DNA of 64,000 bases from Escherichia coli (GTDB taxonomy: Bacteria > Pseudomonadota > Gammaproteobacteria > Enterobacterales > Enterobacteriaceae), in the NCBI RefSeq assembly GCF_029227855.1, contig NZ_CP074356.1. The stretch is one strand, 5' to 3'. Below are positions 1 to 15,742 of this stretch, one piece after another (positions within the stretch are counted from its first letter, which is position 1; each line of letters opens with the position of its first letter). The position numbers and the translations under genes were made by a program. The notes beneath the pieces were generated by a model. It did not search any database. It was not told the DNA's origin and saw only the letters and a list, made by a program, of their open reading frames with translations.

Positions 1-338
1 CGCTGTCGAAAGAGACGCTCGCCACCATTATCGCCGGAAAACTGGCCCGTCTGGATAACGTGCTGCGCAGTCGCTTTGGTGCAGAAGTGGTCATTGAACC
101 GGAAGTGACGGACGAAATCATGAGCCGCGTCACCCGCGCGGAAAACGGCGCGAGGATGCTGGAATCGGTCATCGATGGCGACATGCTACCGCCGCTCTCG
201 CTGCTGCTGTTGCAGAAAATGGCGGCTAACACGGCGATTGCCCGGATTCGGTTGTCGGCGGTGGACGACGCATTTACGGCAGACGTGGAAGATGCTCAGA
301 ACGACGAGTCCGTCACAAAGGATGAAACGGTTTTATGA
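1..338 (+). CDS. tssH: ClpV/TssH AAA+ ATPase of T6SS, C-terminal fragment (5' end lies outside window)
   Basis: Frame open from window edge to TGA at 336-338; tail ...RFGAEVVIEPEVTDEIMSRVTRAENGARMLESVIDG... resembles Clp/Hsp100 C-terminal small domain; stop overlaps next start (ATGA); followed by tssA/tssM/hcp. Confidence 0.6.
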   Translation, partial: LSKETLATIIAGKLARLDNVLRSRFGAEVVIEPEVTDEIMSRVTRAENGARMLESVIDGDMLPPLSLLLLQKMAANTAIARIRLSAVDDAFTADVEDAQNDESVTKDETVL

Positions 339-1078
339 GCAGGTTGCGCGTTTTCCGGCAGACAGGATGGTTTATCGCGGGCCTGATGACGGGCTTACCC
401 GCCACTGCCGCGCCCGCAGAAACATCGTCAATGGCCGGTGTGGCGGTCGCCGTCGCCACCACGACCCCGCCGGATGCGACAGCCACGTCACAGGCCATGC
501 AGTCCTGTCGGCGGGAGTCCGCGGCGCTGGAGCGGCTTGACTGCTATGACCGCCTGCTGGCACCGCTGTCCCCGTCAGGGTTTGACGGGGCGCTGGTCAA
601 AGCCGGTTTTGTGGGCGAGGCCTGGACCCGCGCCACAGAGCAGGAAAAACGCCGCGAGGGCAACACCACAGAACTGCTGGTGACGCAGGTGCCGGGGGAG
701 CGCCCGACGGTGGTGATAACCACCCCGGCTATCGGCCATGTTCCGCCGCGCCCGGTGCTGATGTTCAGTTGCGTGGACAATATCACCCGGATGCAGGTGG
801 CGCTGATGCACCCTCTGGATGTCCATGATATCGCCGTCACTCTGAATGCCGACAGCCGGGCATTGCGTAGCCACTGGTTTGTGCGCGAGAACGGCACCCT
901 GCTGGAGTCCAGCCGGGGGCTGTCCGGGATTGATGAAATTAAGCAACTGTTCGGCGCAAAAACGCTGACAGTGGATACCGGCGCAGATAACGCCGCAGGA
1001 AAGCTGACCTTTAACATTGACGGGCTGGCAAGGGCGATTGCCCCCCTGCGCGTTGCCTGCCACTGGGCGGGAGAATAA
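335..1078 (+). CDS. T6SS-associated exported protein (VasI-like by position), 247 aa
   Basis: ORF with N-terminal hydrophobic signal-like segment (GWFIAGLMTGLPATAAPA) and Ala/Thr/Pro-rich linker; translationally coupled to clpV and tssA; assignment by synteny only. Confidence 0.5.
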   Translation: MSRLRVFRQTGWFIAGLMTGLPATAAPAETSSMAGVAVAVATTTPPDATATSQAMQSCRRESAALERLDCYDRLLAPLSPSGFDGALVKAGFVGEAWTRATEQEKRREGNTTELLVTQVPGERPTVVITTPAIGHVPPRPVLMFSCVDNITRMQVALMHPLDVHDIAVTLNADSRALRSHWFVRENGTLLESSRGLSGIDEIKQLFGAKTLTVDTGADNAAGKLTFNIDGLARAIAPLRVACHWAGE

Positions 1079-1082
1079 AAAT

Positions 1083-2495
1083 ATGGCAATGGACTTACGC
1101 GATCCGAATGTCTGGATAACGCACCTGCTGGAAAACCTGCCGGAAGAAAAACTGGCATCGGCGCTGAAAGATGACAACCCGGACTGGGAGTATATCGACG
1201 GCGAAATCGTCAAACTGGGATCTCTGGCCCACAGTCAACTGGATATCCCGGAACTCCAGCGCCGGGGGCTGGTCATTCTGGCTTCGGAGAGTAAGGACTT
1301 TCGTCTGCTGGCGCATCTGCTGAGAACCCTGCAACACGCCGGTGATCCTCATCTCGCATTGCGCCTGCTGGCGCTGTATGTGGAGCATTACTGGTCGGTG
1401 GCTGCGCCGCAGAATATGGCACATAAAAAACGCTTTGCCAGCCAGGTCATTAAACGCTTCGAAACAGGTATTGAAGGCTTTTCACAGAACGCCGCCACAG
1501 CGCAGCGCGACGCGCTGTCAGGGGAACTGGCGAAACTGGCGCAGTGCTGGCAGTCACATAACGCCCCGGAACTGGCACTGGCTACCGATGATCTTTTTGC
1601 CCTGTACCAGCGTGCGTTTAATCGTGCGGCACCGGCTCCTGCCCCCACTCCAGCGGCCTCCGATAGTTCACGACAGACCACCGCCACGTCTGAAAGCGGC
1701 GTGACGCAACCCAGTGCTCCGGCTCCCCAAATCGCCATCGACAGTCACGACGACAAAGCCTGGCGCGACACGCTGTTAAAAGTGGCGGCTATTTTATGTG
1801 AACGCCAGCCGGACTCGCCGCAGGGCTATCGCCTGCGCCGCCATGCCCTGTGGCAATCCATCACCAGTACACCCCAGGCGGAAAGCGATGGACGTACCCC
1901 ATTGGCTGCGGTCTCTGCCGATATGGTGGCGGATTACCAGTCCCGGCTTGCCAGCGCGGATATGGCGCTGTGGCAGCAGGTTGAGAAAAGCGTATTGCTG
2001 GCTCCTTACTGGCTGGACGGTCACTGTCTTTCTGCACAGACGGCACTGCGTCTGGGTTACAAACAGGTGGCAGACACCATCCGCGATGAGGTCATCCGCT
2101 TCCTTGAGCGTCTGCCCCAGCTTACCGGGCTGCTGTTTAATGACCGCACACCGTTTCTTAGTGAGCAGACGAAACAATGGCTGGCAGCTTCGCCCGACGG
2201 CAAAGTTGCACCGGTTGCGCAAATCGGTGAGGAATCGCAGGCAGCCAGAGCCTGTTTTGCTGGGCAGGGTCTGGAGGCGGCGCTGCGATATCTGGACATG
2301 CTACCCGAAGGCGATCCCCGCGATCAGTTTCACCGCCAGTACCTTGCCGCACAGTTGACGGAGGAGGCGGGGCTGATACAGCTTGCGCAGCAACAGTACC
2401 GGATGTTGTTGATGATAGGGAGTCAGATGATGGTGTCTGACTGGGAGCCATCATTACTTACGCAGCTTGAACAAAAATTCACGGCAGAACAATAA
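1083..2495 (+). CDS. tssA: TssA (ImpA-family) T6SS protein, 470 aa
   Basis: ATG at 1083 preceded by GGGAGA 7 nt upstream; ~470 aa with internal Pro/Ala-rich linker; immediately upstream of tssM as in VasJ-VasK arrangement. Confidence 0.6.
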   Translation: MAMDLRDPNVWITHLLENLPEEKLASALKDDNPDWEYIDGEIVKLGSLAHSQLDIPELQRRGLVILASESKDFRLLAHLLRTLQHAGDPHLALRLLALYVEHYWSVAAPQNMAHKKRFASQVIKRFETGIEGFSQNAATAQRDALSGELAKLAQCWQSHNAPELALATDDLFALYQRAFNRAAPAPAPTPAASDSSRQTTATSESGVTQPSAPAPQIAIDSHDDKAWRDTLLKVAAILCERQPDSPQGYRLRRHALWQSITSTPQAESDGRTPLAAVSADMVADYQSRLASADMALWQQVEKSVLLAPYWLDGHCLSAQTALRLGYKQVADTIRDEVIRFLERLPQLTGLLFNDRTPFLSEQTKQWLAASPDGKVAPVAQIGEESQAARACFAGQGLEAALRYLDMLPEGDPRDQFHRQYLAAQLTEEAGLIQLAQQQYRMLLMIGSQMMVSDWEPSLLTQLEQKFTAEQ

Positions 2496-2513
2496 AAGAG
2501 AACAGGAGTTTTT

Positions 2514-5500
2514 GTGTTCAGATTACCAACACCCCGACTACTCAGCGGACTCAAATCAGCCCTACGCCCGGCGATGCCCCGGTTTAAAGTCTCCGCTTTC
2601 TGGCTGCTGATACTGGCGTGGATTTTTCTGCTGGTATGGATCTGGTGGAAAGGCCCGACGTGGACGCTGTATGAAGAACAGTGGCTCAAACCACTGGCGA
2701 ACCGCTGGCTGGCAACGGCGGCATGGGGGATTATCGCCCTAGTGTGGCTTACCGTCCGGGTGATGAAGCGCCTGCAACAGCTTGAAAAAATGCAAAAGCA
2801 GCAGCGCGAGGAGGCCATTGATCCGCTCAGTGTGGAGCTGAACGCCCAGCAGCGTTACCTTGACCGCTGGCTGCTGCGCCTGCAACGCCATCTCGACAAC
2901 CGCCGTTTCCTGTGGCAGTTGCCGTGGTATATGGTCATCGGCCCGGCGGGCAGTGGCAAAACGACACTGCTGCGCGAGGGTTTTCCGTCCGACATTATTT
3001 ATGCCCCGGAGGGCGCACGCGGCGCAGAACAACGCCTGTACCTCACGCCCCATGTCGGTAAACAGGCGGTGATCTTTGATATCGACGGCACACTCTGCGC
3101 TCCCGCTGATGCGGATATCCTGCATCGCCGTCTGTGGGAACATGCCCTCGGCTGGCTGAAAGAAAAGCGCGCGCGCCAGTCGCTGAACGGGATTATTCTG
3201 ACACTCGATTTACCCGATCTGCTTACCGCAGACAAACGCCGCCGCGAACATCTGTTACAGACGCTGCGCAGCCGCTTGCAGGATATACGCCAGCATCTTC
3301 ACTGCCAGTTACCGGTTTACGTGGTACTCACCCGGCTTGATTTATTGCAGGGTTTTGCCGCCCTGTTCCAGTCACTGAACAGACAGGATCGCGATGCAAT
3401 TCTAGGGGTCACGTTCACCCGCCGCGCCCATGAAAATGATGACTGGCGAACAGAGTTGAATGCTTTCTGGCAGACATGGGTGGATCGAATGAACCTAGCG
3501 TTGCCGGATCTGATGGTCGCTCAGACTCACACCCGCGCGTCTTTATTTAGTTTTTCCCGCCAGATGCAGGGAAGCCGTGAACCACTGGTGTCACTGCTTG
3601 AGGGTCTGCTTGACGGCGAAAATATGAACGTGATGCTGCGTGGCGTCTATCTCACCTCTTCGCTTCAGCGCGGACAGATGGATGATATTTTCACCCAGTC
3701 TGCCGCCCGCCAATACCGGCTGGGCAATAACCCACTGGCGTCCTGGCCTCTGGTGGACACCGCACCCTATTTCACCCGTAGCATGTTCCCGCAGGCGTTA
3801 CTCGCAGAGCCTAATCTGGCAACGGAGAGCCGCGCCTGGCTGATGCGTTCCCGTCGCCGCCTGACGGTTTTCTCTGCCACTGGCGGCGTGGCGGCACTGC
3901 TGCTCATCACCGGCTGGCATCACTATTACAATGGTAACTATCAGTCCGGCATCACCGTGCTTAAGCAGGCCAAAGCCTTTATGGATGTGCCGCCTCCGCA
4001 GGGGGAAGATGACTATGGCAACCTGCAACTGCCGCTGCTGAACCCGGTACGCGATGCCACTCTGGCCTACGGTGACTGGGGCGACCGCAGCCGCCTTGCG
4101 GAGATGGGATTATATCAGGGGCGACGCATCGGGCCTTATGTGGAACGGACCTACCTGCAACTGCTGGAGCAACGCTATCTTCCGTCGCTGTTTAACGGGC
4201 TGGTCAAAGAGATGAACGCCGCGCCACCGGAGAGTGAGGAAAAACTCGCCGTGCTGCGCGTGATGCGAATGCTGGAGGATAAGAGCGGACGTAACAATGA
4301 GGTGGTGAAGCAGTATATGGCAAAACGCTGGAGCGAAAAGTTCCACGGCCAGCGCGATATCCAGGCGCAACAGATGTCCCATCTTGACTACGCGCTGGCT
4401 CACACAGACTGGCATGCAGAGCGTCAGGCGGGCGACGGTGACGCTATCAGCCGCTGGACGCCGTATGACAAGCCCGTTGTGTCAGCACAGAAAGAACTAA
4501 GCAAACTACCTGTCTACCAGCGAGTTTACCAGAGCCTGAAAACGCGGGCGCTGGGCGTTCTTCCTGCCGACCTCAATCTGCGTGACCAGGTAGGGCCAAC
4601 CTTTGACCAGGTGTTTACATCTGCCGATGACAATAAACTGGTTGTTCCACAGTTTCTTACCCGTTACGGCCTGCAAAGCTATTTTGTAAAACAGCGCGAT
4701 GAACTGGTTGAACTGACGGCGATGGATTCCTGGGTACTCAACCTCACCCGCAGCGTGAAATACAGTGACGCCGACCGGGCGGAAATCCAGCGCCAGTTGA
4801 CCGAGCAGTATATCAGCGACTACACCGCCACCTGGCGGGCCGGGATGGACAATCTGAATATCCGCAATTTTGAGTCCATCGGACAACTGACCGGGGCGCT
4901 GGAGCAGGTTATCAGCGGTGACCAGCCTTTGCAGCGGGCGCTGACCGTGCTGCGTGACAACACACAACCAGGCGCCTTTTCTGAAAAGCTATCTGCTAAA
5001 GAACGGGATGAGGCCCTGGCTGAACCAGACTACCAGTTACTCACCCGCCTTGGGCATGAGTTCGCCCCGGAAAACAGTACCCTGACAGTCCAGAAAGATA
5101 AAGAAAGCACGATGCAGGCCGTGTACCTGCAGCTCACCGAGTTACACCGCTACCTGCTGGCGATCCAGAACGCGCCTGTACCTGGGAAATCGGCACTGAA
5201 AGCCGTGCAGTTACGGCTTGATCAGAACAGCAGCGATCCCATATTCGCCACCCGCCAGATGGCAAAAACACTGCCTGCTCCGCTCAACCGCTGGGCAGGC
5301 AGGCTGGCTGACCAGGCCTGGCATGTGGTGATGGTGGAAGCCGTTCACTATATGGAAGTGGACTGGCGCGACAGCGTGGTGAAACCGTTTAACGAGCAAC
5401 TGGCAAATAACTATCCGTTTAATCCACATTCTGCACAGGATGCCTCACTGGATGCCTTCGAACGATTCTTTAAACCAGATGGCATACTGGATACCTTCTA

Positions 5501-6038
5501 CCAGCAGAACCTAAAGCTGTTTATCGACAATGACCTGAGTCTGGAGGATGGCGATAACAACGTCATTATTCGCGAAGATATTATTGCGCAACTGGAAACC
5601 GCGCAGAAAATCCGTGACATATTCTTCAGCAAACAGAACGGTCTGGGAACATCCTTTGCCGTGGAAACGGTATCGCTTTCCGGCAACAAACGCCGCAGCG
5701 TACTGAACCTTGACGGTCAGTTAGTCGATTACAGCCAGGGCCGTAACTATACCGCCCATCTGGTCTGGCCTAACAATATGCGCGAAGGCAACGAAAGCAA
5801 ACTGACGCTGGTTGGTGCCCGCGGCGGCGCACCGCGCAGTATCAGCTTCAGCGGGCCGTGGGCTCCGTTCCGCCTGTTCGGGGCCGGACAGCTGACCGGA
5901 GTACAGGATGGCAACTTTACCGTGCGCTTTAGTGTGGACGGTGGCGCAATGACCTACCGCGTGCATACCGACACGGAAGATAACCCGTTCAGCGGTGGGT
6001 TATTCAGCCAGTTTGGCCTGTCAGACACACTGTACTGA
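2514..6038 (+). CDS. tssM: TssM (IcmF/VasK) T6SS membrane complex protein, 1174 aa
   Basis: GTG start at 2514 with AGGAG 6 nt upstream; N-terminal hydrophobic helices; Walker A GPAGSGKTT encoded at 2940-2966; size typical of IcmF family. Confidence 0.85.
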   Translation: MFRLPTPRLLSGLKSALRPAMPRFKVSAFWLLILAWIFLLVWIWWKGPTWTLYEEQWLKPLANRWLATAAWGIIALVWLTVRVMKRLQQLEKMQKQQREEAIDPLSVELNAQQRYLDRWLLRLQRHLDNRRFLWQLPWYMVIGPAGSGKTTLLREGFPSDIIYAPEGARGAEQRLYLTPHVGKQAVIFDIDGTLCAPADADILHRRLWEHALGWLKEKRARQSLNGIILTLDLPDLLTADKRRREHLLQTLRSRLQDIRQHLHCQLPVYVVLTRLDLLQGFAALFQSLNRQDRDAILGVTFTRRAHENDDWRTELNAFWQTWVDRMNLALPDLMVAQTHTRASLFSFSRQMQGSREPLVSLLEGLLDGENMNVMLRGVYLTSSLQRGQMDDIFTQSAARQYRLGNNPLASWPLVDTAPYFTRSMFPQALLAEPNLATESRAWLMRSRRRLTVFSATGGVAALLLITGWHHYYNGNYQSGITVLKQAKAFMDVPPPQGEDDYGNLQLPLLNPVRDATLAYGDWGDRSRLAEMGLYQGRRIGPYVERTYLQLLEQRYLPSLFNGLVKEMNAAPPESEEKLAVLRVMRMLEDKSGRNNEVVKQYMAKRWSEKFHGQRDIQAQQMSHLDYALAHTDWHAERQAGDGDAISRWTPYDKPVVSAQKELSKLPVYQRVYQSLKTRALGVLPADLNLRDQVGPTFDQVFTSADDNKLVVPQFLTRYGLQSYFVKQRDELVELTAMDSWVLNLTRSVKYSDADRAEIQRQLTEQYISDYTATWRAGMDNLNIRNFESIGQLTGALEQVISGDQPLQRALTVLRDNTQPGAFSEKLSAKERDEALAEPDYQLLTRLGHEFAPENSTLTVQKDKESTMQAVYLQLTELHRYLLAIQNAPVPGKSALKAVQLRLDQNSSDPIFATRQMAKTLPAPLNRWAGRLADQAWHVVMVEAVHYMEVDWRDSVVKPFNEQLANNYPFNPHSAQDASLDAFERFFKPDGILDTFYQQNLKLFIDNDLSLEDGDNNVIIREDIIAQLETAQKIRDIFFSKQNGLGTSFAVETVSLSGNKRRSVLNLDGQLVDYSQGRNYTAHLVWPNNMREGNESKLTLVGARGGAPRSISFSGPWAPFRLFGAGQLTGVQDGNFTVRFSVDGGAMTYRVHTDTEDNPFSGGLFSQFGLSDTLY

Positions 6039-6048
6039 GGAGGCAGGG

Positions 6049-7401
6049 ATGAATAGTAACGGACTGACACAAACTATCGTTACCGGCAGTGACCCGCGCG
6101 GGCTGCCGGAATTCAGCGCCATCCGCGAGGAAATAAACAAAGCCAGCCATCCGTCACAGCCTGAGCTGAACTGGAAACTGGTGGAGTCGCTGGCGCTGGC
6201 GATTTTTAAAGCCAACGGTGTGGATTTACACACCGCCACCTACTATACGCTTGCCCGGACACGGACACAGGGACTGGCGGGATTCTGCGAAGGTGCGGAA
6301 CTGCTGGCGGCAATGGTAAGCCACGACTGGGATAAATTCTGGCCGCAGGGCGGTCCGGCGCGTACTGAAATGCTGGACTGGTTTAACTCCCGAACCGGCA
6401 ATATTCTGCGTCAGCAAATCCCCTTTGCGGAACCCGATCTGCCACTGATCTACCGCACAGAGCGGGCATTGCAGCTTATCTGCGACAAGCTTCAGCAGGT
6501 GGAGCTGAAGCGCGTTCCGCGCGTGGAGAATCTGCTCTATTTTATGCAGAACACGCGTAAGCGGCTTGAACCCCAGCCGAAGAGTAACGTTGAAAACGCC
6601 GTACAGACCACGGTTAGAACACTGATTTATGCCCCGGAAACAACGGCTTCCTCCACGCCAGAAGCGGTAGTGCCTCCCCTGCCCGACCTGCCTGAGATGA
6701 AAGTAGAAGTGCGCAGTCTGTCAGAGAATCCCCCACAGGCCAGTGTGATGAAGCAAGGCAGTACGGTAAGAGGGTTTATCACGGGGATCGCCTGTTCAGT
6801 GGCTGTCGCCTCAGCATTGTGGTGGTGGCAGGTCTATCCGGTGCAACAGCAACTGTTACAGGTTAACGACACCGCGCAGGGCGCAGCAACGGTGTGGATG
6901 GCCTCACCTGAACTAGAAAACTATGAGCGCAGGCTGCAACAGCTTCTTGGCGTCTCCCCGGTACAACCGCTGGAAACCGGGATGCAGATGATGCGTGTTG
7001 CCGACAGTCGCTGGCCGGAAAGCCTGCAGCAGCAGCAGGCCTCGACACATTGGAATGAAGCACTCAAAACCCGCGCACAGAGTAGCCCGCAGTTGCGTGG
7101 CTGGTTGCAGACCCGTCAGGACTTACATGCTTTTGCAGATCTCGTGATGCGGCGCGAGAAAGAGGGACTAACCCTTTCCTATATCAAAAATGTCATCTGG
7201 CAGGCGGAGCGGGGACTGGGGCAGGAAACACCCGTTGAGTCTCTGTTGACGCAGTACCAGGATACCCGTGCGCAGAAGCAGAATATAGATGCGCTGGAAA
7301 AACAAATTAATGAGCGACTCGAAGGCGTGTTAATCCGCTGGCTGCTGCTGAAGAATAACGTCATGCCAGAGGCGGCAACCGGGACCACGGCCGAAAAATA
7401 A
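6049..7401 (+). CDS. TssA-like / VasL-like membrane-anchored T6SS accessory protein, 450 aa
   Basis: ATG at 6049 after GAGGAGG (6038-6044); central hydrophobic segment ITGIACSVAVASALWWW; position after tssM matches VasL; family call by synteny, not verified. Confidence 0.5.
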   Translation: MNSNGLTQTIVTGSDPRGLPEFSAIREEINKASHPSQPELNWKLVESLALAIFKANGVDLHTATYYTLARTRTQGLAGFCEGAELLAAMVSHDWDKFWPQGGPARTEMLDWFNSRTGNILRQQIPFAEPDLPLIYRTERALQLICDKLQQVELKRVPRVENLLYFMQNTRKRLEPQPKSNVENAVQTTVRTLIYAPETTASSTPEAVVPPLPDLPEMKVEVRSLSENPPQASVMKQGSTVRGFITGIACSVAVASALWWWQVYPVQQQLLQVNDTAQGAATVWMASPELENYERRLQQLLGVSPVQPLETGMQMMRVADSRWPESLQQQQASTHWNEALKTRAQSSPQLRGWLQTRQDLHAFADLVMRREKEGLTLSYIKNVIWQAERGLGQETPVESLLTQYQDTRAQKQNIDALEKQINERLEGVLIRWLLLKNNVMPEAATGTTAEK

Positions 7402-7424
7402 TTATTTAATTAAAGGAGATTATC

Positions 7425-7907
7425 ATGGCAAATATGAGTTATTTATCTTTGAGTGGAGAGACACAAGGGCTGATTTCAGCAGGTTGCTCAACGCTTGATT
7501 CTGTCGGAAACAAAGCACAGCCAGAACATAAAGATCAGATCATGGTTTATGCGTTAATGCATTCCATCTCAAGAAGTCAAAATGTCAATCATCATGAATT
7601 AATTATCACCAAACCGGTTGATAAATCCTCACCATTGCTGGCAAAAGCACTTAGTGACAATGAAAAAATGGTAACATGTGAATTTATACTCTACCGAACC
7701 AGTAAAGCGGGTATTTACCAGCCTTATTATAAAATAAACCTGTCAAAAGCCCGAATATCAAGTATTGATTTTGTCACACCGCATGCTGTCCTGGAAAAAG
7801 AACTGGAGCCACAGGAGAGAATTGCCTTTATTTATGAAGATATTTCCTGGGAGCATACGTTAGCCGGTACGAATGCAATGAGTAAATGGCAGGATCGTGT
7901 ACAGTAA
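7425..7907 (+). CDS. hcp: Hcp (TssD) T6SS tube protein, 160 aa
   Basis: AGGAG RBS upstream; 160 aa; Hcp-like segments KSSPLLAKAL and ERIAFIYEDISWEH; no C-terminal extension; lower GC than upstream T6SS genes. Confidence 0.8.
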   Translation: MANMSYLSLSGETQGLISAGCSTLDSVGNKAQPEHKDQIMVYALMHSISRSQNVNHHELIITKPVDKSSPLLAKALSDNEKMVTCEFILYRTSKAGIYQPYYKINLSKARISSIDFVTPHAVLEKELEPQERIAFIYEDISWEHTLAGTNAMSKWQDRVQ

Positions 7908-7950
7908 TTTACTGTAATAACATAATAAATTACTATTGCGGAGAGATATA

Positions 7951-8865
7951 ATGGCTGGTTTAAGGAATAATAACAACACACAGAATGCACAGTGGGCTGA
8001 TTATGTGGGTGACATTCTTCGGGGGGCTCAACCGATAAACCAGCTAGTACCTCAGCACCCTTATCTTAACGACGTCCCACTCATTGATGAATTAAGGCGT
8101 CAGAACACTCATCATGTTATTCTCTTGACACTTGATGTTGCAAAAAAAATACTCAACTCAATAACATCATTTGATTACATTCATTTTATCACTACACATC
8201 CTTCAGGTATAAAAGATACACTCGCTTGGTTAGTTAACGCGGGTAAATTAATGACTGAGTTTGATGGAAATGGGAAAATTATATTTAACTTTAATACCTT
8301 AAAGTATACAAAAGCAAGTTACTTTGAAATACTTGGAGAGAAATATATAAAAATTACAACATCCAGCCCCTGGCTTTTAGAAAAGCTCGGTAAATATATT
8401 TTCTCTTCACGAGCGCCTCAAGTTCTGGAACTCGCTATTGGCTGGCGAGGAGCTTTATCTGAATCAATAAAAGGAGTTAAGTTCTGTATCTGGTTTTCAG
8501 TAGCCTGGAGAACCATAGAATTTATTATGAGTTCAGAGCGAGATCTGGTTAATTTTCTTGGTGATTTTTCAATGGATGTGGCCAAAGCAGTGATTGCAGG
8601 CGGTGTTGCAACTGCTATTGGAAGCCTGGCTTCTTTTGCCTGTCTTAGTTTTGGCCTTCCAGTAATTCTTGTAGGAGGAGCAATTTTACTTACAGGGATA
8701 GTGTGTACAGTTGTTTTAAATGAAATCGATGCTCAATACCATTTATCAGAAAAATTAAAAGATGCAATTAGAGATGGACTAAAACGGCAACAGGAACTTG
8801 ATAAATGGAAAAGGGAAAACATGACTCCATTTATGTATGTTCTTAACACTCCTCCCGTGATATGA
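7951..8865 (+). CDS. hypothetical protein, 304 aa, C-terminal Gly/Ala-rich hydrophobic helical hairpin; candidate T6SS cargo effector
   Basis: ATG 7951 with GGAGAG 5 nt upstream; ~220-aa polar N-terminal region, then two hydrophobic helices (AVIAGGVATAIGSLASFA and GLPVILVGGAILLTGIVCTVVL) and a charged tail; AT-rich; 43 nt downstream of hcp. Confidence 0.55.
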   Translation: MAGLRNNNNTQNAQWADYVGDILRGAQPINQLVPQHPYLNDVPLIDELRRQNTHHVILLTLDVAKKILNSITSFDYIHFITTHPSGIKDTLAWLVNAGKLMTEFDGNGKIIFNFNTLKYTKASYFEILGEKYIKITTSSPWLLEKLGKYIFSSRAPQVLELAIGWRGALSESIKGVKFCIWFSVAWRTIEFIMSSERDLVNFLGDFSMDVAKAVIAGGVATAIGSLASFACLSFGLPVILVGGAILLTGIVCTVVLNEIDAQYHLSEKLKDAIRDGLKRQQELDKWKRENMTPFMYVLNTPPVI

Positions 8866-8874
8866 GGATTAACT

Positions 8875-9129
8875 ATGCGTTTACATGTTAAATTGAAAGA
8901 GTTTTTTTCGATGTTTTTTATAGCCATATTATTTTTCCCTGCATTCAATGCTTCTTTATTTTTTACCGGAATTAAACCTCTATATTCAATAATAAAAGGC
9001 TCCACGGAAATATTTTATGATTGGAGAATGTTGATTCTATGCTTCGGTTTCATATCGTTTTCCTTGTTAAATATTCATGTAATTTTACTAACAATAATAA
9101 AATCATTCTTAATAAAAAAACAAAGGTAA
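8875..9129 (+). CDS. small membrane protein, 84 aa, two predicted TM helices; candidate immunity protein
   Basis: ATG 8875 with GAGGA 6 nt upstream, 9 nt after previous stop; very hydrophobic product; ends just after an A7 run at 9114-9120. Confidence 0.4.
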   Translation: MRLHVKLKEFFSMFFIAILFFPAFNASLFFTGIKPLYSIIKGSTEIFYDWRMLILCFGFISFSLLNIHVILLTIIKSFLIKKQR

Positions 9130-9341
9130 TCAATTTCGCCACAGACATAACAATACAGCTAACTCTTATATTTTTACTAATAGCTATCGTAATAGCACCT
9201 TTAATAGCTCCTTTTGTCACAGGATATGTCAATGCTAATTATCACCCCTGCGGTAATAACACGGGGATTTTCCCAGGAGCAATCTATATTAAAAATGGCA
9301 TAAAATGTAATAATGAACATATTTCTCGCAAGGAAGATTAA
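9021..9341 (+). CDS. hypothetical small membrane ORF (frame 0); possibly the 3' part of a frameshifted gene with 8875..9129
   Basis: Overlaps previous ORF in another frame; one hydrophobic helix LTLIFLLIAIVIAPLIAPFV; no convincing own RBS; frames would join with one extra A at 9114-9120. Confidence 0.2.
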   Translation: MENVDSMLRFHIVFLVKYSCNFTNNNKIILNKKTKVINFATDITIQLTLIFLLIAIVIAPLIAPFVTGYVNANYHPCGNNTGIFPGAIYIKNGIKCNNEHISRKED

Positions 9342-9454
9342 GCAGTTAAATAATTAAATATTCTAAAACAAACAGTTTTTAACGCCGGATTCCATGTCCT
9401 TTCTTGCACTGTCTTTGTCAGGAACAATTTCTTATGCAAAGAATTTTGTATTAT

Positions 9455-9477
9455 TGCCGCCAGAAATTCCTGGCGGC
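9455..9477. terminator. hairpin between convergent cargo ORFs and yafT
   Basis: GCCGCCAG-aaattc-CTGGCGGC inverted repeat flanked by AT-rich sequence. Confidence 0.4.
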
Positions 9478-9489
9478 AGATATAATTTA

Positions 9490-10275
9490 TTATTGATAGC
9501 GGTTAACCAAATCTTTTACCATCGCTTTATAGGTCTTTTGCTTAAGTTGTATGATTTGCTGCTCTGTCATATCAGTCGTACTGGCTTCATTCTTGCCGGG
9601 AAATGGTGGAAGCACTTTATATTCATAATTCACCGGCGACCAGGCAGCCCACTCACCTGTAGCTACATCCACCAGCGTGAATCGCACCAGATAGCGCAGT
9701 GAGATTGTGTTAGTCAGTTTTTCATTTTTATAATCGGACCATACTGTTGATTTCAGTGCAGTGTCATATTTTCCTGTCTGCAACGTATCCTGGTAAACAA
9801 TAATCGCTTTCTGATGGCCTTTTGCCGCCACAAAACGTAATGCCTGCATCCAGTTCATATTTTCAGCACTGGCAACATCCTCGTTCTCATTTTTATCTTT
9901 GTTTTTGTTACAAGTCAGAGGCTTTTGTCTGTCCGGGATACCAGAGAATGTGGAAACAGTATAATATTTTCGCATCTCCTCCTGCATAATGGTTTCCGGT
10001 GCGCGGTTGCCGGATTGAACAAGTATTACAGGTGAATTAAGGGGAACGCGGAACTCATCTCCATCAAGCGCAGCTTGAATATCCTCCTCGGATACGGCTA
10101 GTGTGGTTTCATTACCAAATAAGTCTTTGTCTGTTAGTTGCTGCGGAGCGTTTTTATTAAAATTACTTTGTGTGGTTTGAGCTTTTTTCTTCTTTTCATC
10201 AATAAGAGATTCAGAGACACATCCTGCAAGCAGCGACAATAATACATATATACAACAAACCTTTTTTGAATTCAA
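9490..10275 (-). CDS. yafT: YafT lipoprotein, 261 aa
   Basis: Signal peptide with lipobox LLAGC; Lys/Asn-rich; AT-rich; sits beside aspV as in K-12. Confidence 0.85.
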
Positions 10276-10546
10276 AATCGGACACTCCCTCGTCTGTCAT
10301 AATCATGGTAATGTTTAGCTAACGATTTTTAATTATATACTCCACTTGAATCAGAACAAACAAAAATAATATTAAATATTAATTCATTAAATCAATAGAA
10401 TAATAAAAATTATAACATGGAAATATATTTAAATTGAATGATTCGCTGGTATTATTAAATATTAATGAATGGTCAATCATATATAATTACCACATTTACA
10501 GCATAACAAAATAATTGAACGAAGAAATTGTGGGGTTTAAATACAA

Positions 10547-10582
10547 AAAAAACCGCAAAATTAAAAATTTTGCGGTTCTCTG
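10547..10582 (-). terminator. rho-independent terminator downstream of aspV
   Basis: On minus strand: stem AACCGCAAAAT/ATTTTGCGGTT followed by T8. Confidence 0.7.
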
Positions 10583-10604
10583 AACTCATTTTCATGAGTG
10601 AATT

Positions 10605-10681
10605 TGGCGGAACGGACGGGACTCGAACCCGCGACCCCCTGCGTGACAGGCAGGTATTCTAACCGACTGAACTACCGCTCC
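10605..10681 (-). tRNA. aspV: tRNA-Asp(GUC)
   Basis: 77-nt reverse complement of canonical E. coli tRNA-Asp including CCA; identical to the copy at 19539-19615. Confidence 0.95.
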
Positions 10682-10813
10682 GCGTTGTGTTCCGTTGGGA
10701 ACGAGGCGAATATTACGGATTGCCTCACCCTTCGTCAACGGTTTTTCTCATCTTTTGAATCGTTTGCTGCAAAAATCGCCCAAGTCGCTATTTTTAGCGC
10801 CTTTTACAGGTAT

Positions 10814-11545
10814 TTATGCCCGCCAGAGGCAGCTTCCGCCCTTTTTCTGCACCAGATCGAGACGGGCTTCATGTGCCGCAAGCTCTTCATCTGTCGCAAA
10901 AACAACGCGTAACTTACTTGCCTGACGCACAATGCGCTGAATTGTTGTTTCACCTTGTTGCTGTTGTGTCTCTCCTTCCATCGCAAAAGCCATCGACGTT
11001 TGACCACCAGTCATCGCCAGATAAACTTCCGCAAGGATCTGGGCATCGAGTAATGCCCCGTGCAACGTTCGTTTACTGTTATCTATTTCGTAGCGGGCAC
11101 ATAACGCATCGAGGCTGTTGCGCTTACCGGGAAACATTTTCCTCGCCACCGCAAGGCTATCGGTGACCTTACAGAAGGTATTGGTCTTCGGAATATCGCG
11201 CTTAAGCAACGAAAACTCGTAGTCCATAAAGCCGATATCGAACGCTGCGTTATGGATCACCAACTCCGCGCCGCGAATATAGTCCATGAACTCATCGGCT
11301 ACTTCGGCAAACGTGGGCTTATCGAGCAAAAATTCATCGGCAATACCATGTACGCCAAAGGCTTCCGGATCCACCAGCCGATCGGGTTTGAGATAAACAT
11401 GGAAGTTATTGCCCGTCAGGCGACGGTTCACCACTTCAACGGCACCAATCTCAATGATCTTGTGGCCTTCATAGTGCGCGCCAATCTGGTTCATACCGGT
11501 GGTTTCGGTATCGAGAACGATCTGGCGTGTAATTGCAGTGCTCAT
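10814..11545 (-). CDS. dnaQ: DNA polymerase III epsilon subunit (3'-5' proofreading exonuclease), 243 aa
   Basis: Translation [20 protein letters not shown]... matches DnaQ; start chosen at the conserved Met (ORF extends 3 codons further). Confidence 0.95.
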
Positions 11546-11609
11546 AGCGGTCATTTATGTCAGACTTATCGTTTTACAGTTCGATTCAATTACAGGAAGT
11601 CTACCAGAG

Positions 11610-12826: not shown

Positions 12827-13585
<759 letters not shown>

Positions 13586-15061: not shown

Positions 15062-15742
15062 ATGCGCCTATAAGGCTCTCTTACCAGCCGCGCCCTAACA
15101 GGCGCACACGATCTGACATTTGCATCCAACTTCGTTACTTACGGCCCGTAAACGGGCTGCCCGGATAGGGAATCGATAACTGCTCTCCCATTTTATCCTC
15201 TTCAAGCTGGTGCTTTATGTAATCCTGTATCTTCGCCGTGTTCTTACCCACTGTATCGACGTAGTACCCTCTGCACCAGAACTCCCTGTTCCTGTATTTG
15301 AATTTCAAATCACCAAACTGCTCGTAAAGCATCAGACTGCTTTTCCCTTTCAGATATCCCATAAACCCGGATACGCTCATTTTGGGCGGGATCTCCACAA
15401 GCATATGGATATGATCTGCACAGCATTCAGCTTCCAGAATCCGTACGCTTTTCCACTCACACAGCTTTCTCAAAATACTGCCTATTGCTCTACGCTTCTC
15501 TCTGTAGAACACCTGTCTTCGGTATTTTGGCGCAAAAACTATGTGATATTTACAGTTCCATCGGGTGTGCGCTAAGCTCTTTTCGTTCCCCATTGGGACC
15601 CCCTTTTGATTTCTTGTTTGACACTTGCAGTTGCCAGACCGCAAAGTGTTTTAACAAATCAAAAGGGGTTTTAATAACTGGCTCAAAGCTGAAAGCTTTC
15701 CGGAACCCCCAGCCTAGCTGGGGGTTTTCTGTGCACAATGAA
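15062..15742 (-). mobile_element. IS200-family insertion sequence (IS200/IS605 family), boundaries approximate (+/-30 bp)
   Basis: Single 152-aa Y1 transposase ORF; perfect palindrome AACCCCCAGC-cta-GCTGGGGGTT at 15704-15727; 5' UTR inverted repeat 15596-15672 pairing with the SD; ~0.7 kb extra DNA between convergent mltD and yafE. Confidence 0.65.
15135..15593 (-). CDS. tnpA: IS200-family transposase TnpA (HUH Y1 transposase), 152 aa
   Basis: MGNEKSLAHTRWNCKYHIVFAPKYRR...HIHMLVEIPPK... with HUH motif; start at internal ATG 15593 with GGGGG SD. Confidence 0.85.
   Translation of the reverse strand: MGNEKSLAHTRWNCKYHIVFAPKYRRQVFYREKRRAIGSILRKLCEWKSVRILEAECCADHIHMLVEIPPKMSVSGFMGYLKGKSSLMLYEQFGDLKFKYRNREFWCRGYYVDTVGKNTAKIQDYIKHQLEEDKMGEQLSIPYPGSPFTGRK

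Follow-up and report, generated by a model that had tools for sequence, protein, structure and literature searches.

The 64,000 nt of Escherichia coli DNA analysed here (the window) start inside a type VI secretion system (T6SS) island of about 33 kb, which is located between yafV and the 3' end of the tRNA gene aspV. Genes were named by reference to the RefSeq annotation of strain JNEC-KY178, which is 100.0% identical to the window from 5900 to 10760, save for a single-base indel, and 99.97% identical from 1 to 11600. In this strain the island is ordered as yafV, ISAs1 remnants, rhs, vgrG, a first hcp gene, and tssB through vasL to aspV, and dnaQ and rnhA are annotated beyond aspV. The window holds the end of the structural operon (vasI-tssA-tssM-vasL), followed by a second hcp gene, the cargo gene tme, ykfM, yafT and aspV (Table 1). 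An earlier note on this DNA had described a drop in GC content near 7410 that continues through the spacer to aspV, with GC-rich DNA at 300-7400, and had proposed that the hcp-cargo end was acquired or exchanged separately from the structural genes.

The GC content was 57.5% for positions 1-7401, 35.75% for 7402-10604 and 51.3% for 10605-64000. A two-segment likelihood scan placed the left change point at 7393, 6-8 nt ahead of the stop codon of vasL at 7399-7401. Two segments (log-likelihood -7130.9) outscored a single one (-7348.2) by 217 nats. The right change point was at 10605, the 3' end of aspV. The AT-rich stretch of 3203 nt is the GC minimum among all windows of this size in the 64 kb; those outside the island had a mean GC of 0.514 (standard deviation 0.018, minimum 0.468), and the AT-rich stretch lies about 8.9 standard deviations lower than this mean. 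The drop was greatest at synonymous third codon positions (GC3, Table 1) and in the intergenic DNA, which has a GC of 0.17-0.34 within the AT-rich stretch. The codon bias (Karlin B) measured against 15 neighbouring core genes was 0.50 for hcp, 0.56 for tme and 0.67 for ykfM; it was 0.375 for yafT, and the core mean was 0.34. Relative to the host, the island is unusual on both sides of the break, the structural operon being GC-rich and the end AT-rich. The GC drop seen by eye was thus borne out. The gene identifications in the earlier note were also right. VasI, TssA/VasJ, TssM/IcmF, VasL and Hcp were recovered by Pfam or NCBIfam, and yafT and ykfM by the RefSeq annotation.

Table 1. Features at the T6SS end of the window. 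GC3, GC content at third codon positions; aa, amino acids.
Feature	Position	Strand	GC	GC3	Description and basis
vasI	335..1078	+	0.64	0.74	structural/accessory gene; Pfam VasI 1.3e-52; JNEC-KY178 annotation
tssA (VasJ type)	1083..2495	+	0.58		Pfam T6SS_VasJ 2.2e-70; JNEC-KY178 annotation
tssM (IcmF family)	2574..6038	+	0.57	0.66	Pfam IcmF-related domains; JNEC-KY178 annotation
vasL (ImpA_N/VasL-domain gene)	6049..7401	+	0.56	0.63	last GC-rich gene; Pfam VasL, ImpA_N
left boundary zone	7359..7393				recombination breakpoint 7358/9 and GC change point 7393
second hcp (tssD) of the island	7425..7907	+	0.39	0.34	160 aa; TIGR03344, PF05638
tme (304-aa cargo gene)	7951..8865	+		0.28	Tme-family effector, full-length form of K-12 yafU
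ykfM	8875..9341	+		0.27	DUF1240-like (Tmi-type) predicted immunity gene, frameshifted in the window
GC-rich hairpin	9454..9479	+			10 pairs; between convergent ykfM and yafT
yafT	9490..10275	-	0.41	0.39	lipoprotein gene, lipobox LLAGC
yafT-aspV spacer	10276..10604		0.25		
aspV (tRNA-Asp GTC)	10605..10681	-			ARAGORN; Rfam tRNA 67.7 bits

The second hcp gene, preceded by an AGGAG ribosome-binding site of its own, lies 23 nt downstream of vasL. Its product passed the curated cutoffs for Hcp/TssD (TIGR03344, 204.5 bits with a cutoff of 58.9; PF05638, 83.7 bits with a cutoff of 23.5). It is only 31% identical to the main Hcp of the island and 55-57% identical to the Hcp proteins of other cassette types. 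The gap between vasL and hcp is without a terminator; the only hairpin is the one past ykfM, which is likely the shared terminator of ykfM and yafT. A scan of 7000-10900 against Rfam (E≤0.1) gave no match other than the tRNA, and a promoter scan was uninformative in the AT-rich DNA (16 sites versus 12.2 ± 3.2 expected).

The 304-aa protein encoded by tme had no match in Pfam, NCBIfam or the PDB sequences (the PDB search gave only AhlB, at a non-significant E value of 0.89). The few homologues, which came from E. coli and Salmonella as well as from Rahnella and metagenomes, reached down to 35% identity. Across nine of these homologues, M208, D209, K212 and D260 are invariant. D209-K212 form a DxxK motif (8575-8586), and residues 213-261 (8587-8733) a hydrophobic helical hairpin. 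The published signature of the Tme effector family is a DxxK motif, then a transmembrane helix, then an aspartate (Fridman et al. 2020, PMC7046647), and the MDxxK motif, the hydrophobic hairpin and the invariant aspartate of the window protein correspond to this definition. The gene neighbourhood is also that of the family, as hcp precedes tme by 43 nt and ykfM follows it after 9 nt; for the homologues in Salmonella, in Rahnella and on the contigs L022 and L023 a DUF1240 gene comes next. In Supplementary Data 5 of PMC7046647, WP_000908051 and WP_000908052 of E. coli appear as Tme proteins (domain 122-277, E ~1e-35), and the table of that paper gives the Hcp WP_001284199 upstream and WP_001236649 (YkfM, three transmembrane helices) downstream of the E. 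coli Tme. These accessions are the proteins found at the same locus in strains iso602, Z1322 and 98215; WP_000908052, from the iso602 locus, and the window protein have different residues at 10 of the 304 positions. The E. coli orthologues of the hcp-tme-ykfM trio are, accordingly, already on record in Fridman et al. 2020 (PMC7046647).

YkfM has three predicted transmembrane helices. In BLASTP searches it matched DUF1240 proteins encoded beside Tme homologues (6e-8 for Salmonella and 4.6e-5 for Rahnella). The Tmi immunity family has been described as "DUF1240-like" proteins (PMC7046647), and we base the link between YkfM and DUF1240 on the BLASTP matches together with this published clustering. 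Among the papers that could be searched, none named ykfM together with type VI secretion. We concluded that tme and ykfM are a predicted Tme/Tmi effector/immunity pair, whose activity in E. coli would be that of its relatives. In the window ykfM carries a 1-nt deletion in a run of A (A7 at 9114-9120, A8 in JNEC-KY178), which splits the gene into an 84-aa open reading frame (ORF) and a downstream ORF. Forty-four complete E. coli genomes share the identical A7 allele, which the annotation of CFSAN061763 calls "frameshifted". We considered a sequencing error as the source of the frameshift and rejected it, because these 44 genomes come from unrelated projects.

To see which blocks of the locus vary, we counted megablast matches in 5426 complete genomes of E. 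coli. The T6SS backbone of the window, termed alpha and scored by a match to the 3' end of vasL, was found in 2919 genomes. On the alpha backbone the trio hcp-tme-ykfM (cassette A) was complete in 2545 genomes, and a different cassette of the O157:H7 type (cassette B) occurred in 365. About 485 genomes, including K-12, carry remnants of cassette A. A second backbone, beta, was present in 580 genomes; it has 76% nucleotide identity to alpha with a synonymous divergence (dS) of about 1-1.4, and there an hcp gene of 51% GC is followed directly by yafT with no cargo in between. These three combinations of backbone and cassette cover essentially all T6SS states in the 5426 genomes. In strains 1105 and CB6837 the beta version was seen as a second allele of the whole T6SS at the same site, with about 76% DNA identity. 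Its VasL has 74% amino acid identity to that of the window, the Salmonella VasL has 75.6%, and the flanking core genes are 98-99% identical. The beta allele is about as distant as the Salmonella version, and two versions of the island that diverged long ago thus coexist in E. coli.

The exchangeable cassette extends over about 7359-9620, has a GC content of 36-38% and comprises the second hcp, tme and ykfM. When O157:H7 was compared with the cassette-A strains iso602, Z1322 and 98215, the identity was 99.0-99.2% in the 3' part of tssM and vasL and 99.2-99.5% in the 5' part of yafT, and there was no alignment at all between these two blocks. The junctions are abrupt: they fall at window positions 7358/9, 14 codons ahead of the vasL stop and 35 nt from the GC change point, and 9620/1, 44 codons ahead of the yafT stop. 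The final 14 codons of vasL (from about 7359) are part of the cassette, as seen in the junction alignment of O157 and 98215 and in the H85 match, which stops at window position 7358. The tssM/vasL region of O157:H7 is 94.5-95.5% identical to the window. Searches for repeats flanking the cassette yielded only short AT-rich chance matches. The cassette has been replaced as a unit by homologous recombination, with the 3' end of vasL and yafT as the arms. This supports the earlier proposal of a separately exchanged hcp-cargo end, since unrelated cassettes sit with abrupt junctions on backbones that are 99% identical.

The O157:H7 cassette consists of an hcp gene with a GC content of 33%, two ORFs (73 and 198 aa) and a gene for a DUF1311/LprI-like protein with a signal peptide. 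On the O157 contig (L002, 5025-6373) the 73-aa ORF comes first, then the soluble 198-aa protein, then the signal-peptide protein. Pfam and NCBIfam searches with the O157 cassette proteins returned only sub-threshold matches to LprI/DUF1311 (lysozyme-inhibitor-like). Their features suggest that cassette B encodes a putative effector/immunity pair, with an effector that would act in the periplasm and its immunity protein.

The window belongs to a sub-lineage of the alpha backbone, alpha1, which was represented by 302 genomes at an identity of at least 99%. Cassette A was found on both alpha sub-lineages. Between the window and iso602 (alpha1 versus alpha2), dS was 0.10-0.18 for tssA, tssM and vasL and 0.19 for yafT; it was 0.03 for hcp, 0.08 for tme and 0.10 for ykfM. 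The mismatch density between the window and other cassette-A strains steps up between 9601 and 9645, and another step in divergence lies at 7359-7400.

The first 43 codons of tme (7951-8079) form a conserved N-terminal handle, and breakpoints were found at codons 43-46. Two further contigs share the 160-aa hcp and the opening 43-46 codons of tme, behind which lie another toxin body and another DUF1240 gene. One Salmonella contig (L014, 6001-9010) equals another (L022) plus an inserted tme/tmi unit, tme307/tmi, behind hcp. The insertion left behind 98 nt of the hcp 3' end in duplicate, a displaced, truncated remnant of the 327-aa type of tme and the DUF1240 immunity gene of this remnant; L014 is an orphan effector/immunity array of stacked tme/tmi units. 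Toxin and immunity gene alone have thus been replaced as well, with hcp and the first ~43 tme codons as the arm. In Rahnella bruchi an orphan tme/DUF1240/hcp trio of 38-40% GC is surrounded by neighbours of 51-57%. On a Hafnia alvei contig (L018, 11721-13233) we observed a C-terminal Tme fragment (ITMDIAK...LDYLD) and two DUF1240 genes located upstream of vasL and not downstream of hcp, which is a rearranged version of the same tme/DUF1240 parts.

The whole arrangement recurs outside E. coli. A Salmonella contig at aspV, whose core flank is 82% identical to the window, has tssM-vasL-hcp-tme-DUF1240 and then yafT-aspV, with the GC content falling from 0.555 in vasL to 0.395 in hcp, 0.378 in tme and 0.258 in tmi. 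In the cargo-free Lelliottia locus, hcp (0.42) and yafT (0.44) compare with 0.575 for vasL. The structural operon has about 57% GC, with a similar value in every examined host. As the GC step from vasL to hcp is present in Salmonella, Lelliottia and Hafnia, it is an old feature of the whole family and not a recent event in the strain of the window.

The earlier proposal needs a refinement for the region beyond the cassette. This region is AT-rich too, but the 5' part of yafT and the spacer are not swapped with the cassette. Only the last 44 codons of yafT (9490-9620) travel with it, and the 5' part of the gene (9621-10275) belongs to a conserved frame from 9621 to 10604. The rest of yafT, together with the spacer, makes up the conserved end of the island next to the tRNA gene. 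In Lelliottia, Hafnia and Salmonella, vasL is likewise followed by hcp, (cargo), a yafT in convergent orientation and a tRNA 3' end; the tRNA gene beside yafT is that for tRNA-Phe in Lelliottia and for tRNA-Asp in Hafnia and Salmonella. E. fergusonii and Citrobacter have YafT as well, with no T6SS gene less than 8 kb away, so that the link between yafT and T6SS islands is frequent, not absolute. Between alpha and beta strains yafT is 87-88% identical, compared with 76% for the T6SS; its dS to other strains is 0.19-0.53, that of the core 0.04-0.14. The spacer has two alleles of about 77% identity which assort independently of the T6SS backbone: type 1 is shared by the window and strains 1105, iso602 and EC0026B, and type 2 by O157, K-12, CB6837, Z1322 and 98215. 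The terminator of aspV (10581-10547, minus strand) lies within this island-specific spacer. YafT itself had no match in our local copy of Pfam, while all 120 homologues listed carry a precomputed match to PF25851; a search against the PDB sequences found nothing. An AlphaFold2 model (pLDDT 62.9) gave weak Foldseek matches to outer-membrane lipoproteins of the LptE/GNA1162 type, with TM-scores of 0.2-0.35 (query-normalised). The label "aminopeptidase", which YafT bears in some RefSeq records, has no support in these results, and we assign no function to YafT.

In strain EC32, yafV is directly beside aspV, without the T6SS and without yafT, and it can be aligned with the window from 10599 onwards, at a distance of 6 nt from the 3' end of aspV. 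This empty site bears out the earlier statement that the island abuts the 3' end of aspV. The island has the characteristics of a tRNA-associated island: it adjoins a tRNA 3' end, is missing in some strains and differs in GC content (57.5% and 35.8%) from the rest of the window (51.3%). A direct repeat of the aspV 3' end at the distal boundary was not found. The search covered 54.7 kb of JNEC-KY178, namely the island with the flank on the yafV side; the only copy of at least 12 nt of aspV there, on either strand, was the gene itself, and no integrase gene is annotated from yafV to aspV in JNEC-KY178. The distal end consists of yafV, then transposase and ISAs1 remnants, then rhs, and the aspV repeat may have been lost there. 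The position of the island at the tRNA gene is therefore confirmed; an integrase-type insertion signature was not observed. A second compositional break was noticed at this distal end of JNEC-KY178 (L013, 23100-24600), where the rhs core of 60-68% GC falls to 31-42% in the 3' tip and a small downstream ORF. It is the mirror image of the break at the hcp end and adjoins the ISAs1/transposase pseudogenes and yafV.

K-12 has kept the equivalent of window positions 8509-11600, that is, the C-terminal 118 codons of tme, ykfM, yafT and aspV. The tme remnant is annotated as an incomplete hypothetical protein, is the classical yafU, and is joined to an ISAs1 fragment and yafV. The genes yafU and ykfM of K-12 are remnants of cassette A.

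Two further observations concern the DNA beyond aspV. The gene gloB (12830-13585) has a GC of 0.40 and a GC3 of 0.36, compared with about 0.50 for its neighbours, and is 98.4-99.1% conserved across all compared strains; it is a low-GC core gene and not part of the island. A transposase gene of the IS200C family lies at about 15100-15600 (L001, 29237-29695), between mltD and a yafE-like methyltransferase gene in the lineage of the window, and its position coincides with a strong negative GC skew.

The locus can be read as three compositional layers of a tRNA-linked T6SS island, namely a GC-rich structural operon, an exchangeable AT-rich Tme cassette and a conserved AT-rich frame of yafT and spacer, and we are confident that this is largely correct. 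The short vasL-hcp gap, the AGGAG site and the lack of a terminator suggest that hcp would be co-transcribed with vasL. The second Hcp would then carry Tme out through the T6SS tube, the C-terminal hydrophobic helices of Tme would enter the inner membrane of the target cell and depolarise it, as described for Vibrio Tme1 and Tme2, and YkfM, as an immunity protein of the inner membrane, would shield sister cells. We infer this mode of action from the Vibrio pairs Tme1/Tmi1 and Tme2/Tmi2 and from the order of the genes. The low GC content would reflect a horizontally circulating pool of effector/immunity genes, and the AT-rich region is probably bound and silenced by H-NS.

Several points weigh against this reading. 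Backbones and cassettes were tallied separately in the genome counts. The backbone is strongly associated with its cassette, and a single clear replacement, that of A versus B, is documented, so that exchange appears to be rare. The low dS of hcp amounts to three synonymous changes and could be explained by selection or composition. YkfM of H1 and of K-12 did not match Pfam DUF1240 (PF06836) at E≤0.1, the AlphaFold model of Tme, built from nine sequences, had a pLDDT of 44.7, too low for a fold search, and a frameshifted ykfM beside an intact tme is odd for an active toxin/immunity pair.

An alternative is that the island arrived only once, together with its AT-rich end, so that the break was inherited family-wide without separate exchange in the lineage of the strain. 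Such a history would account for the vasL-hcp step in Salmonella, Lelliottia and Hafnia, for alpha backbones bearing only cassette A or B (2545 and 365 are together close to 2919) and for the presence of cassette A on both alpha sub-lineages. The A/B replacement on 99% identical backbones, the divergence steps at 7359-7400 and 9601-9645 between the window and other cassette-A strains, the alternative tme/tmi bodies behind the same hcp, the orphan trio in Rahnella and the 51% GC of the beta-type hcp speak against it, and we regard it as rather unlikely. The low GC content might also have no bearing on origin and result from functional constraint, through membrane-protein composition, low expression or H-NS binding. 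Tme and YkfM are indeed hydrophobic membrane proteins, and H-NS represses the homologous island (PMC5363993). However, synonymous third positions (0.65 falling to 0.28-0.39) and intergenic DNA (GC of 0.17-0.34) show the largest drop, and the soluble Hcp is AT-rich too, whereas the 57%-identical Hcp of other strains is encoded at 51% GC; this explanation has very little probability.

For yafT and the spacer it could be argued that they are native chromosome and that the T6SS entered the interval from yafT to yafV rather than the aspV site itself. K-12 and other strains have retained yafT after loss of the T6SS, its codon bias of 0.375 is within the core range, it is better conserved than the T6SS between alpha and beta (87-88% versus 76%), and E. 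fergusonii and Citrobacter have it without a T6SS within 8 kb. Against this stand the EC32 site, where yafV directly adjoins aspV without yafT, the recurrence of the order vasL, hcp, yafT and tRNA at other tRNA genes in Lelliottia and Hafnia, the GC of 0.41 for yafT versus 0.51 for its neighbours, and its dS of 0.19-0.53 compared with 0.04-0.14 for the core. A native origin is improbable on these grounds.

A bolder version of the same reading, which we put forward tentatively and rate at somewhat below an even chance, takes hcp and the ~43 tme codons as a delivery handle behind which toxin/immunity units are swapped or stacked, and hcp-tme-tmi as a self-contained AT-rich mobile unit that also occurs outside T6SS clusters, as in Rahnella. 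If this were true, yafU and ykfM of K-12 would be the wreck of such a unit, and an orphan ykfM might protect strains without a T6SS from Tme-armed relatives. Prone to slippage, the A7/A8 run of ykfM would act as a switch which disables immunity in a sub-lineage (the 44 complete genomes) while the toxin gene stays intact.

In the three-layer reading the GC break has an ordinary explanation, as the line at which conserved T6SS machinery meets an effector/immunity cassette that circulates horizontally. The reading places poorly characterised K-12 genes in a context, with yafU as the remnant of a Tme toxin gene, ykfM as its predicted immunity gene and yafT as a lipoprotein gene at the end of the island. 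It also predicts incompatibility groups among E. coli strains, according to whether they carry cassette A, cassette B or no cargo. The feature as such is ordinary and largely documented, and the current understanding of T6SS biology is unchanged. The incremental points are the junctions at base level, the modularity of hcp and the N-terminal handle, the reinterpretation of yafU, ykfM and yafT, and the recurrent frameshift in the immunity gene.

Among known systems, the pairs Tme1/Tmi1 and Tme2/Tmi2 of the Vibrio parahaemolyticus T6SS1 (PMC7046647) share with the window locus a C-terminal domain in which DxxK is followed by one or more transmembrane helices flanked by an aspartate, an immunity gene of the DUF1240-like type with several transmembrane helices directly downstream, and a T6SS gene directly upstream. 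They differ in that the upstream gene in the window is a dedicated hcp that ends the main T6SS cluster, and in that the N-terminal ~43 residues in E. coli are a conserved handle common to divergent toxin bodies. Enterohaemorrhagic E. coli O157:H7 EDL933 has a 37-kb aspV-associated T6SS island with several hcp genes, which is repressed by H-NS (Wan et al. 2017, PMC5363993). It occupies the same chromosomal site as the window island and has the same backbone, but the terminal cassette of O157 is different and stands in place of hcp-tme-ykfM.

Loci of the polymorphic toxins Rhs and CDI (contact-dependent inhibition) have a 5' part that is GC-rich or conserved and an AT-rich variable toxin tip with an immunity gene, and replacement through recombination within the conserved part leaves displaced orphan modules behind. 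The Salmonella contig L014, compared with L022, resembles such arrays, and the rhs gene of the island itself is a local example. Unlike in Rhs/CDI, the handle here is a separate hcp gene plus ~43 effector codons, and the effector is a cargo and not a domain fused to a repeat protein. In V. cholerae, which also has a vas-type T6SS, the effector/immunity modules of the auxiliary clusters are reportedly exchanged between strains and are said to have a GC content unlike that of the adjacent conserved genes, in work attributed to Unterweger and colleagues in 2014 and Kirchberger and colleagues in 2017. The E. coli module differs from these in being located within the main cluster beside a tRNA gene, and two cargo-bearing types dominate the species.

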